This document shows, piece by piece, positions 4,224 to 25,515 of a stretch of DNA of 25,822 bases; position 1 is the first letter of the stretch; each line of letters begins with the position of its first letter. Source of the stretch: a virus (lineage: Duplodnaviria > Heunggongvirae > Uroviricota > Caudoviricetes); the IMG/VR virus record IMGVR_UViG_2585427774_000009, positions 1 to 25,822 of that record, one strand, 5' to 3'. The notes below the pieces were generated by a model, which was given only the letters and a program-made list of their open reading frames with translations, had not been told where the DNA came from and made no database searches. The translations under genes and the position numbers were made by a program.

Positions 4224-6431
4224 TTATTTTGATTCGAGATCCTCAACACGCGCTACCAAATTTTCATACTGCTCTTTCATTCGCTCATAGTTACGGCGCT
4301 GCAGCGCAGCTTCCAGAGCCAGGGCCTCCTCATAACGAATGCCATAGCGGGATCCGGCTGGGGTTTCCAGAACCTGGCTGTAAGTTGGCTCTGCAGGTTC
4401 GGTATATTCCTCAATTACCTCAGTCGGCACCTGCTCGGTATACTCCTCCTCGACATCTTCAAGCTCTGCCTCATAAACAAAAAGCTGTTTGCCTGCCTCG
4501 TCAAGACGCGGAGAACCATCCTCGTTAAAGACAAATACCTGGATAAGCTTAGGTGTCTGATACTCTTCCTGAACTACCCTCTTGATGCGTTCTCCATCTT
4601 CCGCTTCTTCATCCACAAGAATTTCGCGCGTGGCTGTCATCATCACAGGTCGTTTTACTGTACGGGTTTTTGTCACTTCCATCATGCGGCTGACAGTGCG
4701 GGTTTTTGTTACTCGCTCCCCCTCATTGGTCCGCACTGAAATATATTGGTCTTCCCATTCGTCGTAACAGAGGAGCCCGAGACCGAAGCCATCAATGCCA
4801 TGCGATGCAAACACCTCCTCCACGCGCTGCGCAATAAGGCCGAAGTGCCAGCGCGCACCGTCTTCGCCTTTTTGCGCAACCGCATCATCAAACTTAAACC
4901 GCGTGCGCCAGCTGACTTCCTCCCAGGCATCGAGGACCACATCAGGGATCGCTTCCTTAATTGGCTTGTGATTGTCATCGGAGGTGTTAATCGCACCAGT
5001 ACCAAAATAGGCAGTACGTCCTCGATATGAGGCTGAGCCATAATCGAACTGGTTATCGGCGCTCGGGCGCTGGGTGCAGTTATAGGTGACAATCCCGGCT
5101 TTTATCTCATAGTTACCTTGCCCATCTGTTGCACTACCACCGCTAACCACTACGCGAGCGTCAAAAGCAGAGCCAGCCCCACTGGACCGGTATATTGTTT
5201 GCACCGTGCTTGCAATAGTTGGAGACCCTACTGACGTAAACGCCCCTGAGTCTTCTAATTGCAAAGATTTGGTGCTGAGCTTAACCAGGTTGTGGAAAAT
5301 GATGTGGTTCACTTCAACCAACGAACCGAGGGAAAGGACGCGGTCTATTTTTGGGCAGTCGACGGAAAGTACACGGCTGTCTTCACCAAATACTGCCCCG
5401 CCATTCTGCGGGCCAAAGGCAATACCGGTTCGCCAGGTGCAGGCGCTACCCATGTTACCGACGCTAATTGCAGCATCAATTACGTCGCCGCGTTTTGCCT
5501 TGGTGCCGCCGATTTGCAGGCCGGTTCTGATGTTTGAGCTGGCACCCTCCGGAATGCCGACGTTGAATTCAGCCCCCGTGACATTGAGCGTATACATAGC
5601 CCCTGGGGTAAGCGTTCCGTAGAAATTACCACCAAAATAAGCCCCCTTAGCGCCAGCAAGCGATACTCCACCGTCTCCAGTTGAGGAGGTCGCAAAGCCG
5701 GTGACGCCTACATAGTTTCTGTCAGTATTTGTTGCATCAGTCTGACCAAGCTGCTCAAGGATGAATTCAGCAGCGTGGCGGCCGCCTTTACATCCCGCCC
5801 CCCCGAATTTGTGATTCAAGAGGAATCCGTCAACCTTTGTTCCGGGAACCATGTCATCAACAGCATTGAAACGGTCATCGTCAATCCTGATATAATTGAA
5901 CTTGGCCGTGTTGACAGTGAGCCCGCTCCCGGTAATCGGCTCCGCAAGATGAACCCCGATCCCTCGGGTAATATCATCTCCGAATTTCTCTCCTGGCCGC
6001 CCCTGCAGAATTGAAAACTTATCCAGTCCTCGGCTCATTACCCCAGGACCTACTAATGCAGCGCCGCCCAGCGCAGCTAATTCAGCCCTTAACTGGTCTG
6101 GAGCATATTTCAGAACATCAGCAAAATAGAATTGTTGGGTGCCGTATGAATCGCGAATCTCCATGCTGTAATTTTGCACGGTGACGAATTTAACAATCTG
6201 ACCGTTATAAACGGGGAATCCGCCAGCATTTATTCGCAATGGCTGAGGTACTGGAACATGGGTCCCATCTTCATTCTCAATATAAACCTGAATTTGGTTA
6301 GCAGGATTCGTAGGATCTGTATCCACTAGCCCAATAAAGATTTCTCCATTGGCAACAGCCTTAAATGCACGAGCCATAGTAAATGGCTGGCTAGGCATGG
6401 CGATAAGAACATTCGCGGTAATATCTGACAT
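4224..6431 (-). CDS. Tailspike protein: P22-like head-binding N-domain, glycine-rich receptor-binding/depolymerase domain, C-terminal S74-type intramolecular chaperone domain
   Basis: 735-aa ORF; N-terminal about 110 aa (MSDITANV...FKAVANG...[19 protein letters not shown]...LKY.PDQ) matches the P22 gp9 head-binding domain from memory; central Gly/Thr-rich region typical of beta-helix spikes; C-terminal part has a Ser-(x4)-Lys motif (TSDDNHK) and WHFGLIAQ resembling endosialidase-type autoproteolytic chaperone domains; last gene of the late operon as in P22. Confidence 0.85.
4657..4712 (-). repeat. Imperfect 36-bp tandem duplication inside the tailspike C-terminal domain
   Basis: ACTGTACGGGTTTTTGTCAC (4657-4676) and ACAGTGCGGGTTTTTGTTAC (4693-4712) on the plus strand, encoding the duplicated peptide VTKTRTV in [22 protein letters not shown]. 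Confidence 0.5.
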
Positions 6432-6531: not shown

Positions 6532-7434
6532 TCAGTAGTTATGTACTGAAGGAGGTAATTCTTTATTCTTAAGTCTCATCCATGCGGAAAGATTCGTTGG
6601 TCCGTCTGGCTCATTGATATCAACATCTCGTGAGTGATTGATTAAAACGTCTCTCGCTATATCGATAATACGGGAGAACTCATAACCGCAGTCATGACAT
6701 CTGCCGGAATAGTTCGATTGAATTTGTTTCAGCGCCGGATACAGTTCGCGGAATAATGCCTGTGAGCGGTTGGCATAATCCCATAACCATACAAGACTGT
6801 TTGCTTCTTTTGCAGAAAGCTCGTTGGTTTTCTTATCTTGTTTGCCGATAAACTCGCCTTCAAGCACTACCCTGTGGATGTACTCTACTGCTTGCGGTAT
6901 CTGAGATGCATCAAGCTCTTCAATACTTTCCACGTTGAAACGCTGATGAATCATTGCATAAGCTTCTGGGTACATTAGATGCTTTTTGCTGACTAGCATA
7001 TTTACAGCATCACGAAGCGGAGTCCTGTCATCAACAGATGTTTTCTTACGTGCATTTTCTGCCTTTCCCTTCGTCCAGTAGTCATGCAGCACGCTAAAGC
7101 ATTCCTCCTGGTACTGAATCAGTTTATCACGGATGTCAGCACGAACTTTCTCAGGGTTGATGCTGAACAGCCATCCATTTAACTTCTTCAAAGGAAGGCA
7201 GAGTAGCTTACGAAGCTTCCCATCAGCGGCAACCATGTTCATATGAACACAGTTGAATTTGCTAATCTGCTTCATGAGTTTTGTTTGCTGCGTTGACCAG
7301 CTCATTCCAAGGTTTTCAACGATTGGCTTCATCGCAACATATGCAACTCCGGCAGCCATGGCGGTGATAATTTGCTGACCGTTGAATGGTACGTAAGAGG
7401 TGTTCACTGCTTCTAAAATTGCTATACTATTCAT
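6532..7434 (-). CDS. ant: Antirepressor Ant (P22 immI)
   Basis: ORF track gives a 322-aa ORF; the internal start [21 protein letters not shown] matches the P22 Ant N-terminus from memory and gives 300 aa, with a GGAGA Shine-Dalgarno upstream; position downstream of arc. Confidence 0.85.
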
Positions 7435-7502
7435 GTTGGTTTTTCTCCACGGATTTACTGACAACCGAAGCCCTGACTGTTCCCGCAGTTGGGGCTTCAA
7501 CT
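7435..7502 (+). ncRNA. sar: Possible sar-type antisense RNA region (arc-ant intergenic, antisense to the ant ribosome-binding site)
   Basis: Established P22 biology: a small antisense RNA is transcribed opposite to ant across its translation-initiation region. Here the 68-bp arc-ant spacer contains a GAAGCCC...GGGCTTC hairpin. Ends not determined; placed by analogy only. Confidence 0.3.
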
Positions 7503-8019: not shown

Positions 8020-9027
8020 TTACTTGTCTGAATCATCCAGTTCGTCTGTTTTCACATCCTCAAACCTTGGATGCAGGCGATTCATTTTTGCAATAAAATC
8101 TGAATAGTCGTTAGATAGCTTCATAATCGTAACGGTTGATGACAGATGCTCTCTTAATTTTTGATATCCAATATTTGGCGTCAGCCCCTGAAACAACTTT
8201 GTACCTTTTGAGGCCTTTACGTTCTGCTTTTTAAGCTCCTCAAGGATGTTTGGTGCCAATCTCTTGTAGACGATATCATTTGTCAAAACGCCAAAATACT
8301 GAGGCCGGAAGCGGGGATTTTCCGGCGGGTATTCTAAGCCCCTTAACCTGAAAAGCTCTTCATAATAATCAGCAGGAAATGTTGTAATATAAGGTTGAAT
8401 TTCCTTTGCGACAAAGGCCTCGAGTATTTTGGCGAGTGCATCTTTTTCTCTATCTCGCTGGTAACCCGTCGCTTCATCAACAAGCGCTATTATTCCGACT
8501 TTAGCTAATGAGCGCACCAGAATTTCAGCTTTCTTGGCTGTCTCTAACTGGTTTGGCCTGGTGATAGCGCCTGCCTCTCTTGCCTTTAAATAAACATCGC
8601 AGACAAGAGGTATTATGGATGCGTCATAACCTTCCTGGACGGAGCCAGTAATCGTCTTGTATTTGACCTTATTGATCACATCCATAACATCTTGATTTAT
8701 ATATTTTTTAAGGTTTGCAGCATCCATAAAAGCGGGCATATTGATCACCCCCTCTTCTTGAGGTGCTCTACCCCCTCTTTGTGGTCGGCCAAATGCTTTA
8801 AAAACAGAAGCTTGTGATATGATACGCCGTCCATTTTCGAGAACCGCGACATCTAATTCCGCATCACCGATCTTTAACTTTCCCTCATTCGCAGATACGG
8901 GCAATAAAGCTTTTTCTTTTTTTGCGGCAACAGCCTTTCTTGAGGATTCTTTTCTTTGCTCTGCTGTCATTTTTGCCGCGCGTGCCTTACCGCCTTTGGC
9001 CTTCCCACTAACATCATCATTTTTCAT
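8020..9027 (-). CDS. Hypothetical protein with basic Lys/Ala-rich N-terminus and a C-terminal region resembling the P63C-type phage domain
   Basis: ORF track gives 8020..9087 (355 aa); the likely start is the ATG at 9027 or 9033 (MKNDDVSGKAKGGKARAAK...). The IALVDEATGYQRDREKDALAKILEAF segment resembles my recollection of P63C-domain proteins; unverified. Occupies the position where P22 carries sieA-region genes, between gp16 and mnt. Confidence 0.6.
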   Translation of the reverse strand: MKNDDVSGKAKGGKARAAKMTAEQRKESSRKAVAAKKEKALLPVSANEGKLKIGDAELDVAVLENGRRIISQASVFKAFGRPQRGGRAPQEEGVINMPAFMDAANLKKYINQDVMDVINKVKYKTITGSVQEGYDASIIPLVCDVYLKAREAGAITRPNQLETAKKAEILVRSLAKVGIIALVDEATGYQRDREKDALAKILEAFVAKEIQPYITTFPADYYEELFRLRGLEYPPENPRFRPQYFGVLTNDIVYKRLAPNILEELKKQNVKASKGTKLFQGLTPNIGYQKLREHLSSTVTIMKLSNDYSDFIAKMNRLHPRFEDVKTDELDDSDK

Positions 9028-9069
9028 GAGCATATCTCGTGTTGTGATTGATAAGTCAATCATACACAT

Positions 9070-9104
9070 GCACGTTGTAACGTGCAATATTTAAATATGC
9101 ACGT
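9070..9104. promoter_or_regulatory. Cluster of palindromic operator-like sites in a divergent promoter region
   Basis: GCACGTT-GT-AACGTGC inverted repeat (9070-9085), perfect 12-bp palindrome ATATTTAAATAT (9087-9098) and a third GCACGT copy (9099-9104); lies between the minus-strand 355-aa gene and the plus-strand 129-aa gene. Confidence 0.35.
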
Positions 9105-21284: not shown

Positions 21285-22784
21285 TTAAGTTCTCCGTGCG
21301 ATGGGCCTGATTGGGGCTGGTATCTTTTTCTCTTTTGGTTTTTTGATGTCGCGCATCATTTTGGCGAAGCGGCGCATCATGTATGCATAGCGAACGGCTG
21401 AGAGAACGTCGTCGTTAAGCTTGACGATTTTCCCGTTTTCATCACGGTGATAGAGGCGGAACTCCTCAAAGAATGGCTCACAGGTGTTGAATACTTTGAA
21501 GCGACCATCGAGCATCATGTCGCGCAATTCAGTGATGCCAGGCTCAACAGCATTACCGCCATCAGGCCATGTCGCATGCTCCTGTAACATCATAAATCCA
21601 GCGTCTGCATACTGCCCTTTGAGCTGCTCACCGCCGCCCTTCTCATGCTGGTTTCCGTCATGAGGCCATGCGGTTGGCACTTTATGCGCCCATGATTTAA
21701 CGGCTCCCCACGCCTGAACGGCTGTTTTTTCTTTCGCCTTCCACACGCGTGAAACGTAGATTGTGTCTGCGTCCTTATCCCACCAAAGCTGAACCTGCGC
21801 CTGTGGGTGATCCCATCCGAAATCCATCCCGCCAATTACGTAGAAGTGATCAGGGCACTCAAACGGATGACACTTAATCGTCTCTTCCGGTATCTGGAAG
21901 ATTCGACCGCTACCCATCGTAGGAATACCGCGAGCACGCGCCTCTCTCTCATGTTCAGGATAGGATGCGATGATTTGCTCTTTCTGCTCGTCGGTGTAGT
22001 GCTCAGCGTCATAGATGGTCATGTTGACCACTTTCTGCGACTTGCTGGGATTCTTCAGGAACTTGGTAACAACGTCAGACATCCCCATCAGCGGGGTAAA
22101 CGTCAGAATTGAGAATTGCCCGTATTTGTTGGTACGGGTAAGCCCTTCGCCATAAATGCTGTATGGTGGCTCTTCGTCAAACCACACGCCGTGGATTGTG
22201 TCACCCTGCCAGCGAGCGCGGCCTTGCGAGTATGGTTTGAAGTAGCAGATTGAAATGCCATCTTCAACGCCATCAGCCGTGTGATGCTTAACCAGAAGAT
22301 GATCAACAAGGTTCGGAAAGAAAGGAGACTTCTTCCAGCTAATGATGTCTTCTTTCGGTATGGAACCGTAGCCAGGTTCATCATTCTCTTCGATACGACC
22401 GCACAGGATGCGTTGAGTCGTTTTGGTTACCGTCTCGTTTGTCTCGCCGCCAATCCAGAAGACAACAGGCTCATAGAAACGCTTACCTTTCCACTCACCG
22501 CCATATTTACCATCAGCAGGATAGCCTTTTGTGCCCGGATAACGCCCTGTAAGGTGAAACGCGACTTCGGCAGCACCAGTAAATGACTTACCAAGCTGGT
22601 TACCAGCCATAAAACAGCGCTCTGGATAGTCATGCCCGGCGTCGATGAACTCACGCTGTTTGCTGTATGGCGTAAATTCATATAGCAGGTGTGTGTTCCG
22701 GTAGTTCTCTTCTTCTTCGAGTAGCTCGAGCAATTCGATTTGCTCTTCGTCGCTCAGGTTATCAAGAATCGCGTCCAGTTCCAC
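21285..22784 (-). CDS. Terminase large subunit, P22 gp2-like
   Basis: 499-aa ORF, the same length as P22 gp2; N-terminal ATPase region with a Walker-A-like GNQLGKS motif; C-terminal nuclease region; overlaps the small terminase gene. Confidence 0.9.
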
Positions 22785-23250
22785 GGTTGAATAGCTCCTT
22801 GATACGAGAGCGTCGCTTATCGCGATCTCCCTTATCAGGTGTCACGTCTTCAACTTGCGACTGCTCTTTGAGGCCCAAATCACGGGCGATGATGTTAGCG
22901 TTGAGAAGGTCAGCGGCTGCGCCAGAGAATTTCTGGTCGTAGATGATGTCTTCCGCTCGTGATGTGACGTCAGAAAAACCTTCCATTGACCGGAAGGTTC
23001 CCCATGTTTGCCTGGTGATATCAAGGAAGGTACACAATCCTGAAATAGTCATGGCTCGCATCTTAGGGACATTAGCCTTAATTATTTCTCCCTGATATGA
23101 AAATACCTTACCCTCCCATAGCGGGTTATCATCAGCCCACTCGAAGTATTCACAACAAGCAGCCCACAGCGCCTCAGGCGATTCGAATTTAGGGTTTCGC
23201 CCATGACTACTGCGGGCCTCCCAAAATCGGTTGCCCTTTGGTGCTGCCAT
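22762..23250 (-). CDS. Terminase small subunit, P22 gp3-like
   Basis: Track [43 protein letters not shown]...; the start at the third codon gives 162 aa, matching P22 gp3 from memory, including the conserved C-terminus [24 protein letters not shown]. Confidence 0.85.
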
Positions 23251-23285
23251 ATTCATCTCACTTAATTGTTATTTCAGGTTGAGCA

Positions 23286-23528
23286 TCATGCTCCGGTAGT
23301 GAACAGGTCTAACGCTTCCTTCGATTTACGCACCGCTTCGATAGTGCGGGTCGTGATATCTGAATTAGCGCCACCTGACTGGAAGTGAATTTTGAATAGC
23401 TCAAGCTTCAGCTCGTCAGTACCAATGAACTGAAATGCTTCTTCTGCGGCTGCGTTCTGGTTCATGACCAGTTTGTAAATCTCTAACTGGAATTTCTGTT
23501 CTTCAGTCATGGGAATAATCTCTGCCAT
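23286..23528 (-). CDS. Hypothetical 80-aa protein (position and size of P22 orf80)
   Basis: 80-aa ORF directly upstream of the small terminase gene; I recall an orf80 at this position in P22 but cannot verify sequence identity. Confidence 0.5.
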   Translation of the reverse strand: MAEIIPMTEEQKFQLEIYKLVMNQNAAAEEAFQFIGTDELKLELFKIHFQSGGANSDITTRTIEAVRKSKEALDLFTTGA

Positions 23529-23774
23529 TGTTGGCTCCGTTTATCCGTTAAAAGGGATATCAGTTAAGTTATCCCGTGTAGGGTATAAGCCATTGTCGAG
23601 ACCATTCATTGAATGGCCTCTGCAATAACCGATGTCTTTCCATCAGTCCGCCACCACAAAGATCTTTTTTGCCATAAGGCTGGAGGTTCATCTTTCAGTG
23701 GCTGCCAGTGTTATTTCCCCACTTACTGGCTTGGGTTGTTTCGCTGTACTGCCGTTAATTGGTGAGTCCGGGGA

Positions 23775-24260
23775 TTATTTCAGTTCGTTACCTGGCATTT
23801 CTTTTAGCTCTTTCAAATGACAACGATTGAGGCTAAACCACTCCCCGTGCGACCTATAGTTGTAATATTTTTGGTGCAATTTGGTTTCAAGCTCTCTATC
23901 GGCCGGAATCTTTGCAATTAGATTTAGCTTCCCACCACTCATGCGAGATATCTCTGAAATCCGTTTATTAACCCTGCGACTAAACCCTATTTTTGTTAGC
24001 CCACTATCTTCAGCATGCAGAACGTACACATATGATTTTTGCGAAGCACTGGGTGCGACTTTGTTGTAATTAATCATGTCAAACATGAAGCCTTGCTTTA
24101 GCAAAGTTTCAAAAAAGATAGAATTAACACACCCATTCCTTCTCAGCTCTGCACTTAGCTTGTCAATTTCCTCTATGATGTCTCCAGACCCCTTTCCACT
24201 TATAAGAAAATCTTGGTACATGCGACCAATTCTTGAGGTAATTTCAACAAAGTTATTCAT
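23775..24260 (-). CDS. T5orf172-like (GIY-YIG-related) domain protein with a short N-terminal extension
   Basis: 161-aa ORF; C-terminal part SYVYVLHAEDSGLTKIGFS.R...RISEISR....KLNLIAKIPADRELETKLHQKYYNYRSHGEWFSL fits the T5orf172 pattern (YVY.L...g..KIG.T......R.......E..lH.......GEWF) as I recall it; AT-rich coding sequence. Confidence 0.6.
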   Translation of the reverse strand: MNNFVEITSRIGRMYQDFLISGKGSGDIIEEIDKLSAELRRNGCVNSIFFETLLKQGFMFDMINYNKVAPSASQKSYVYVLHAEDSGLTKIGFSRRVNKRISEISRMSGGKLNLIAKIPADRELETKLHQKYYNYRSHGEWFSLNRCHLKELKEMPGNELK

Positions 24261-24403
24261 AGCGTTTACCTTTTAGAAAGATGAGCCTGTTCGCACAGAA
24301 AAGCCGCCCCGAGATGGTCGCTACCATATACGGCAATTCTCAGGCTCAGCTTTCTGAAAGACTCGGGATTGTTACGCGCTGCGATGCGCGGTTTACTGCA
24401 GAT

Positions 24404-24430
24404 GTAAAAAAGCCCCGCGAATGCGAGGCT
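24404..24430 (-). terminator. Putative rho-independent terminator downstream of the lysis cassette
   Basis: Minus-strand RNA AGCCUCGC-AUUC-GCGGGGCU (8-bp stem with one G-U pair) followed by UUUUUA; read directly. Confidence 0.4.
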
Positions 24431-24604
24431 AAATCCTGGTATTTGTAATGAACTGGCTCTTATCTCAACGCAGCCCCTTACCGCGTGCCATATGCTCAAT
24501 ATCAAGCATCAGCAATGAGATGTTTAATCTGGATTCACTCCAGAAGTGATCACCACCCTGTCTACAGAGCCAGATGTGAAGGATGATGAGTAAAATTATC
24601 GCTA

Positions 24605-25042
24605 TCATCGAAGGCATTGCGTCCTGATGTATTCCTGCAGGTAGTTAACCTGCGCGGTTATCCTGTCGATTCCACTTCGGAGACGGTAATAATTGAGTTC
24701 AGCATCTGCTGTAAGTCTTGGGCTTTCTCCATCGCCCATGCTGCTGGCTCCGGTCGTTGACTTTGCACAGGTGGCGGCGACTTGCAGGCGCTTACGACCA
24801 GCAGAAACATCAGCACGGAGACTTTCGATAGTCGCGTTAGCATCAGCAAGCTCCTTTGTGTATCTGGCATCGAGTTCAGCTACATCACGTTGACGCTTCT
24901 GCATATCAGCGATGATGGATGTGGCTTTATCGCGCTGCTCTTTGTAGGTCATGGCGTTATCACGGTAATGATTAACAGCCCATGACAGGCAGACGATGAT
25001 GCAGATAACCAGAGCGGAGATAATCGCGGTTACTCTGCTCAT
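24605..25042 (-). CDS. Rz: i-spanin Rz
   Basis: 145-aa ORF with an N-terminal TM anchor ([18 protein letters not shown]) and a periplasmic coiled-coil; start overlaps the endolysin stop; contains the embedded Rz1 frame. Confidence 0.85.
24658..24843 (-). CDS. Rz1: o-spanin Rz1 (lipoprotein), embedded in the +1 frame of Rz
   Basis: Embedded ORF; the chosen start gives [20 protein letters not shown], a lipoprotein signal peptide with a lipobox Cys, followed by a Pro-rich mature region ([16 protein letters not shown]); start codon choice uncertain. Confidence 0.65.
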
Positions 25043-25515
25043 ACCTCAATCTCTCTGACCGTTCCGCCTGCTTCTTTGAATTTTGCAATCAGGCTGTCAG
25101 CCTTATGCTCGAACTGACCATAACCAGCGCCCGGCAGTGAAGCCCAGATATTGCTGCAACGGTCAATTGCCTGACGAATATCACCGCGATCAATCATCGG
25201 TAAAGCGCCACGCTCTTTAATCTGTTGCAGTGCCACAGCGTCCTGGCTTTTCGGAGAGAAGTCTTTCAGGCCAAGCTGTTTACGGTAAGCATCCCACCAA
25301 CGGGAAAGAAGCTGGTAACGTCCGGCTGCTGTTGATTTGAGTTTTGGGTTTAGCGTGACAAGTTTGCGAGGGTGATCGGAGTAATCAGTAAATAGCTCTC
25401 CGCCTACAATGACGTCATAACCATGATTTCTGGTTTTCTGCCGTCCGTTATCAGTTCCCTCTGACCACGCCAGCATATCGAGGAACGCCTTACGTTGATT
25501 ATTGATTTCCACCAT
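25039..25515 (-). CDS. R: Endolysin R (lambda-type lytic transglycosylase)
   Basis: 158-aa [42 protein letters not shown]..., essentially identical to lambda R as I recall it. Confidence 0.9.

Follow-up and report, generated by a model that had tools for sequence, protein, structure and literature searches.

What is the role of a single AT-rich gene lodged between the lysis cassette and the terminase genes of a temperate lambdoid phage? The question arises from a stretch of DNA of 25,822 nucleotides (IMG/VR record IMGVR_UViG_2585427774_000009; referred to as the window), for which an original prediction, made from the letters alone, proposed a protein with a C-terminal T5orf172-like domain, plausibly the product of a nuclease-type accessory or defense gene.

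Genomic setting and distribution

The predicted ORF does exist at 23775..24260 of the window. It lies on the minus strand, runs complete from ATG to TAA and encodes a protein of 161 aa (a member of PHROG 4284), and the Shine-Dalgarno motif AAGG is located 8 nt 5′ of its ATG. It is also AT-rich, as had been stated, with a GC content of 0.39 vs 0.48 for the whole window and a GC3 of 0.40 vs 0.47-0.58 in the neighboring late genes.

The window is an integrated P22-like prophage. Its left end carries a host gene of the formate/nitrite-transporter family (1-933) and a tyrosine integrase gene (1209-2435), which indicates that one prophage-host junction is covered. The late operon (minus strand throughout) is composed of the genes for a holin (25499-), an endolysin (25039-25515) and Rz with embedded Rz1 (24605-25042), a gp67-like ORF of 50 aa (24465-24617), an intrinsic rho-independent terminator with a hairpin and a T-run (24430-24411), the T5orf172 gene, a 40-aa remnant ORF (23569..23691), DUF2560/orf80 (23286-23528), and the P22-type small (22762-23256) and large (21285-22784) terminase genes. 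The terminator, which is also annotated in epsilon34, HK106 and mEp235, marks the end of the lysis cassette and the start of the leader of the T5orf172 gene, whose end is separated from the start of the small terminase gene downstream by 519 nt. The remnant ORF resembles the N-terminus of ST64T orf118 and is a misc_feature in epsilon34. In P22 the corresponding order is Rz-Rz1-rha-orf25-orf80-orf59c-gene 3, so the original statement that this phage carries rha in the slot was right.

At another place in the window, upstream of the tailspike gene (4224-6431), we noted an "ant moron" (6532-7500 and 8020-9087, both on the minus strand), whose products are a P22-type antirepressor (P22_AR_N/C) and a 355-aa P63C-domain protein. 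The KilA-N protein of HK97, which is paired with an hkbL-like gene, likewise ends in a P63C domain.

The gene is not new. The window protein is 100% identical to gp68 of Salmonella phage epsilon34 (YP_002533529), gp64 of g341c and a protein of phage NM-3, the three sequenced phages that carry it, and RefSeq already names the product "GIY-YIG nuclease family protein"; on its own, this is an ordinary accessory gene, annotated already. The paper describing the epsilon34 genome (PMC2629481) does not discuss gene 68, and a literature search for functional studies of the window protein or gp68 found none. Over 23288-24700, the DNA of epsilon34 and g341c is 98-99% identical to that of the window, and the neighbors are shared (Rz, gp67, the terminator, the gene itself, the orf118 remnant and DUF2560). 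The virion-assembly genes of the window are of the IME10/HK620 type and not of the epsilon34 type, while the cassette is of the epsilon34 type; the same cassette is therefore present in different mosaic backgrounds, that of the epsilon34 copy being other than that of the window copy.

Among 5426 complete E. coli genomes, 58 contained the gene, once per genome, whereas the flanking sequence was detected in 2552. The accessory status assigned to the gene is borne out by this sporadic occurrence and by its presence in the three sequenced phages mentioned above; the gene is thus no conserved core component of known function, and profile searches support its domain (see below). In species-representative genomes, full-length relatives were found in Enterobacterales only, plus one MAG contig. 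This contig (JAUVQU010000080.1, 9.7 kb), designated "Cellvibrionaceae MAG", encodes a 100%-identical protein between flanks that are 92-99% identical to those of the window, and is with near certainty an enterobacterial phage contig that was placed in the wrong bin.

More distant relatives, with 61-62% (P0009/P0010), 35% (P0016) and 31% (HK106) identity, are likewise located between Rz and terminase, and the Q, holin and terminase types of these elements are unrelated despite the same position. A position just upstream of the terminase genes, and the HNH gene that HK97-like phages have in this interval, would suit a helper nuclease that acts with the terminase in packaging, like the HNH protein gp74 of HK97. 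However, the great majority of the related phages that have these terminases lack the gene, which is also found with at least three unrelated terminase types, and HK106 has both a T5orf172 family member and an HNH gene. On the grounds of this distribution we rejected a packaging role, which we consider extremely improbable.

The nuclease domain and its hkbL-like partner

Searches of Pfam revealed matches to MUG113 (PF13455; E=4e-13, 50.1 bits) and T5orf172 (PF10544; E=1e-9, 39.2 bits), both over aa 77-154. The two scores exceed the respective gathering cutoffs (22.3 and 20 bits), and by this sequence comparison the domain match is far above chance. PHROG 4284, whose function is not annotated, matches the whole protein (E=1e-75), and a search of the protein against NCBIfam gave no match. 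The domain (codons 71-161; 23778..24050, minus strand) is basic and its model has a GIY-YIG fold: the top 6 of the 48,164 chains in a fold search were GIY-YIG nucleases, and the matches include AtGRXS16-N and UPF0213 and, lower down, Eco29kI, UvrC and T4 EndoII. Two of the checks that had been proposed, the Pfam search and the structure prediction, thus confirmed the C-terminal T5orf172 (GIY-YIG-related) domain. An exhaustive profile search identified 17,130 representative proteins containing this domain, with the full two-domain architecture in just ~15 clusters of them.

In 100 relatives, down to ~30% identity, residues Y79, K90, I91, G92, R100, E125, H129, E140 and W141 were invariant. In the motif register given by BH0048 and T4 EndoII (PDB-sequence profile matches of marginal E-value, which we used for the register alone), Y79 corresponds to the Tyr of "GIY", K-I-G to "Y-I-G" and R100 to the catalytic Arg, and the metal-binding Glu is probably E125 or E140. 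The usual first-helix His/Tyr, four residues past the catalytic Arg, is absent; the position which we take to be equivalent, on the basis of the I-TevI numbering, is 104, occupied by Ile. Taken together, the Pfam matches, the fold, the invariant residues, the motif register and the active T5orf172 relatives in ICP1 make the T5orf172/GIY-YIG assignment solid, and catalysis by the window protein likely. In ICP1, T5orf172 proteins are active nucleases, and the substitution E180A inactivates one of them, Odn (PMC8263062).

The window protein differs from the catalytic domains of PD-T4-3/CMoRE, SLX1 and I-TevI, to which its sequence similarity is marginal, in having Lys in place of the second motif Tyr (K-I-G). 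It also has no SRA-like, RING or I-TevI-type DNA-binding extension.

At E<=1, Pfam yielded nothing outside aa 77-154 of the window protein, so that the N-terminal ~70 aa (codons 1-70; 24051..24260, minus strand) do lack a Pfam family, in keeping with the uncharacterized extension of about 65 aa described originally. This N-domain is not an orphan, however, but a homologue of HK620 hkbL. It matches phrog_875, the hkbL family (E=1.4e-6), the HK620 hkbL protein (85 aa) matches phrog_4284 (E=4e-6), and in BLASTP the N-domain and hkbL share 33% identity over 55 aa (E=9e-11). The homology is new here; we found no papers on hkbK or hkbL in the literature.

The full-length model (pLDDT 92.8) places three helices in the N-domain (3-21, 25-41 and 47-68), for which fold searches returned generic bundles and nothing else; no recognizable DNA-binding fold was detected in the predicted structure or in these searches. 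The N-domain has a pI of 5.2 vs 9.7 for the nuclease domain, contains a single Cys that is conserved among close relatives, and has diverged more rapidly than the nuclease domain in all homologues. An acidic, fast-diverging domain fits a specificity or interaction module, and its role would probably be oligomerization or partner binding and not direct DNA recognition.

Genes similar to hkbL occur in 57 phage records. In the three contexts examined (HK620, mEp235 and HK97), a KilA-N gene stands immediately before the hkbL-like gene in this slot (hkbL of HK620, L004:1883-2140; L020:1801-2058; L021:1801-2034), with a 4-nt overlap in HK620 and a 2-nt gap in mEp235 and HK97. Distant members of the nuclease family adjoin KilA-N+P63C or Bro-N genes. 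These arrangements suggest that the hkbL-type module is functionally linked to KilA-N/Bro-type DNA-binding proteins.

The basic nuclease domain could bind DNA alone and the protein is minimal, carrying no specificity domain. Given in addition its late-operon placement and the presence of T4 EndoII among its profile and fold matches, it might be a nuclease of the lytic cycle that, like EndoII, attacks bulk or host DNA with low specificity at a late stage of infection, for nucleotide supply or host shut-off. We regard this as very unlikely, since the gene is sporadic and can be replaced by regulators (see below), the fast-evolving N-domain suggests a specific partner, and host degradation falls outside the known biology of P22-like phages, which package host DNA in generalized transduction.

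The exchangeable cassette and its leader

Comparison with phages carrying other genes in the slot revealed where the cassette begins and ends. Homology by BLAST to Sf101, which has Rha in the slot, ends at 24256, inside the ATG, and resumes at 23777, in the stop codon. HK620, with the KilA-N gene hkbK and hkbL, is homologous to the window over 24256-24640 upstream and 23284-23764 downstream, and the HK97-like siphovirus HK106, in which the slot is occupied by gp64, a 31%-identical paralogue of the window protein, over 24256-24430 and 23447-23764. Downstream homology to the Rha-, KilA-N- and HK106-type cassettes thus restarts no more than 11 nt from the stop codon. Such sharp breakpoints indicate that the cargo is swapped ORF for ORF between conserved linkers, and this exact ATG-to-stop exchange in the slot is new here. 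The upstream linker is the leader (24261..24410, or 24258-24429 with the terminator; minus strand), common to cassettes with unrelated first ORFs, and the downstream linker, or trailer (23631..23774, minus strand), is conserved across cassettes. The same leader-driven slot, with identical flanks, is occupied by hkbK-hkbL in HK620, the gp73 region in HK97, the pair of a KilA-N gene and a small protein gene in mEp235, and Rha in P22 and Sf101; these KilA-N and Rha (ORF11CD3 or P63C) cassettes encode DNA-binding proteins and, in contrast to the window cassette, no nuclease domain.

In the 119 leader-bearing IMG/VR contigs among the matches listed, the first cargo was Rha of the Sf101 type in 79, another Phage_pRha protein in at least 2, KilA-N in 17, ANT/KilAC in 4, HK106-type T5orf172 in 10 and epsilon34-type T5orf172 in 3. 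All of these first cargo proteins fall within one Rha/KilA-N/ANT/T5orf172 domain network, a restriction of the slot's cargo that is also new here.

Because most of the cargo behind the leader consists of DNA-binding regulators (Rha, KilA-N, ANT) and not of nucleases, the common function of the slot may be regulatory. The window protein could, by extension, be a domesticated, non-cutting DNA-binding or regulatory protein equivalent to its alternatives: ~102 of the 119 listed contigs start with Rha, KilA-N or ANT and 13 with T5orf172, and the N-domain is shared with hkbL, the partner of KilA-N. The T5orf172 domain itself is found together with Bro-N and KilA-N domains, and its first predicted function was DNA binding. 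The satellite PLE offers a precedent in CapR, which is related to T5orf172 homing endonucleases and has been domesticated; CapR, however, keeps the DNA-binding domain only, without T5orf172 (PMC8096241). Moreover, the GIY-YIG motif positions of the window protein are all invariant in the 100 diverged relatives, which is unexpected after a loss of catalysis, and a non-cutting protein has, in our opinion, little probability.

The T5orf172 genes of epsilon34, E. coli W, SWYH.B349aT, Nord122 and the window are 99.4-99.6% identical, while the upstream linker in these backgrounds is 83-99% identical and occurs as two alleles (~83% identity between them). The homologous block begins exactly at the terminator in two further sequences, one an Erwinia genome and the other a metagenomic contig. 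The near-identity of the gene over divergent linkers, its AT-richness and its sporadic presence are signs of recent spread. With an exact pattern, which could miss variants, we detected no empty site (a leader-to-trailer junction) in IMG/VR, and in all 119 listed contigs the leader was followed by another ORF. In the absence of an empty site, and with other ORFs in the alternative alleles, ordinary homologous recombination in the flanks explains the mobility of the cassette without homing. Recombination in the conserved flanks would account for such patterns as the means by which the cassette spreads, and homing is not required.

Two relatives were of irregular structure. In P0014, which was left out of the profiles, a deletion has left the N-terminus of Rz in fusion with ~40 aa from the C-terminal end of the nuclease, and P0005 retains two-thirds of the nuclease at 99% identity, yet its precomputed Pfam domain is DUF2560. 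Both look like cases of cassette decay in some prophages.

The leader (~170 nt) extends from the terminator to AAAAGGTAA(N2-5)ATG. It precedes Rha, KilA-N, ANT and two T5orf172 subtypes (loci compared beside the window: L001, L003, L004, L006-L010, L020 and L021), and a shared structured leader ahead of differing cargo is another feature new here. Folding predicted a long helix in which CUUUCAGAAAG...GAGCCUG is paired with CAGGCUCA...CUUUCUAAAAGG, and this pairing is predicted to occlude the Shine-Dalgarno sequence. The minimum free energy of the leader corresponds to z=-3.35 vs shuffles. In the leader alignment, 93% of the cells were paired, with 3 compensatory pairs, vs 35-51% in controls in which the 3′ partners were slid by 1-3 columns. 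Since ~3 independent lineages were sampled, the helix is suggestive and not established; on the strength of this model, the leader may serve both as a recombination linker and as a translational gate common to the cassettes. A search of 23200-25100 against Rfam gave a sub-threshold chance match only. We also considered svsR, an sRNA of lambdoid prophages (PMC12803456), as a candidate identity of the leader and found no link; the text of that paper gives no location.

The annotated starts of P22 rha (L019, 1076-1681), mEp235 KilA-N (L020, 1007-1798) and the metagenomic P0010 gene (L010, 5001-5552) lie ~21-22 codons upstream of the conserved RBS/ATG of their relatives and overlap the conserved leader; they are probably mis-called.

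Expression and possible functions

A consensus scan of the minus strand over 23200-25100, which weak or activator-dependent promoters could escape, revealed no sigma-70-like promoter, and no terminator was found 3′ of the T5orf172 gene in the window. The gene was therefore rejected as a classical moron with its own promoter and terminator, as the terminator is placed upstream and not downstream and no promoter was found. In epsilon34, PR′, qut and Q are annotated upstream of the gene's copy. By analogy with lambda and P22, and in line with the simple promoter scan, transcription would occur late in lytic growth only, from Q-modified polymerase reading through from PR′.

The predicted expression pattern bears on the suggestion, made at the outset, of a defense gene. 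A defense nuclease would be expressed from the prophage and would cleave incoming foreign (e.g. modified) DNA in the lysogen, in the manner of the single-gene GIY-YIG system PD-T4-3/CMoRE. P22-like prophages do carry defense genes, and arms-race genes are present in the neighboring sub-slot. The 40-aa remnant at 23569-23691 marks this second accessory sub-slot, which is empty in the window and which in Sf6, Huey and the E. coli Nord122 prophage contains Phage_gp49_66 and/or Tad2-like (anti-Thoeris) genes (L002:547-927, L005:382-1497 and L009:3441-3821), a Tad2-like gene being found in Huey, for example. A search of PADLOC-DB v2 gave a weak, domain-level match to the candidate system PDC-S57 (E=4e-4, 18 bits) and one to PDC-M64B (E=0.03) only, and the PD-T4-3 model was unmatched. 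Furthermore, the gene is situated within the late operon right behind a terminator, with no promoter-like site and no terminator after it, and the protein contains no modification-sensing domain, its N-domain being a plain three-helix bundle. Of the original proposal, the accessory nature and the nuclease-type domain thus held, while defense gained no specific support beyond the weak PDC-S57 match, no promoter for expression in the lysogen having been found in the consensus scan; we judge such a role to be unlikely.

The explanation that we favor, tentatively and at somewhat less than even confidence, is that of a late-expressed accessory GIY-YIG/T5orf172 endonuclease engaged in conflicts between mobile elements, possibly homing-like or directed against competitors, with the hkbL-like domain as its interaction or specificity module. 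The protein would be a two-domain DNA endonuclease: an hkbL-type N-domain, acidic and made of three helices, joined to a basic T5orf172/MUG113 catalytic part that retains the motif Tyr, R100 and the acidic residues E125 and E140. Its gene would be a cassette exchanged with ORF precision in the post-Rz slot of lambdoid phages, encoded on the strand of the late operon and preceded by the terminator and the structured leader. Q-modified RNA polymerase reading through from PR′ would supply the transcript late in the lytic cycle, and the leader helix, by hiding the Shine-Dalgarno sequence, may gate translation. The nuclease might then cut the DNA of another lambdoid phage or a satellite that resides in, or infects, the same cell, and the benefit could go to the phage or, through homing-like recombination in the conserved flanks, to the cassette.

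The closest parallels to this favored role are the T5orf172 homing endonucleases of ICP1, T5-like and other phages (Barth, Dunham and Seed 2023), in which, as in the window protein, the nuclease domain is located at one terminus. Genes for T5orf172 homing endonucleases lie next to terminase genes in 35% of neighborhoods, and CapR, DUF723 or DUF4397 zinc fingers are present in 87% of the characterized enzymes (PMC10448857). The window gene shares with them a sporadic occurrence near terminase at a boundary of genetic exchange, and sporadic presence beside essential genes (terminase, capsid, RNR), a trait of homing endonucleases, applies to it as well. Three differences were found: the window protein has an acidic helical bundle instead of the CapR/DUF723/DUF4397 zinc fingers; its phage is temperate and lambdoid and not lytic; and the window gene takes the place of another ORF precisely and does not interrupt an otherwise empty site.

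A second parallel is Odn (gp88) of ICP1, an anti-satellite, origin-directed nuclease with the same layout, in which the C-terminal T5orf172 domain is preceded by a module that also occurs in a protein of a rival element. As is reported for Odn, the window protein lacks the usual first-helix His/Tyr. The shared module of Odn is a RepA_N domain borrowed from PLE, while that of the window protein is the hkbL-like domain (33% identity). By analogy with this RepA_N module, the N-domain might be a targeting adaptor taken from a rival KilA-N + hkbL allele, which would send the nuclease to the DNA of a competing lambdoid phage or to proteins of the KilA-N/Rha/ANT type. The cassette would then be an allele-replacement or exclusion weapon, and the leader a common translational gate for such late genes. 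We consider this more specific scheme distinctly improbable.

If the nuclease is active, the theme of T5orf172 nucleases at exchange boundaries, studied so far in the lytic ICP1 and T5-like phages, would extend to temperate lambdoid phages, whose prophages are frequent in E. coli and Salmonella. As epsilon34 and P22-like phages have good genetics, an active nuclease would also make the system tractable for the function of late-operon Rha and KilA-N genes, with the hkbL link and the shared leader as two testable handles.

An additional observation was made in the E. coli SWYH.B349aT prophage, which also carries the GIY-YIG cassette. It encodes a protein with a NUMOD4 domain, typical of homing endonucleases (L008:6272-6793), whose gene sits between Q and the holin gene.
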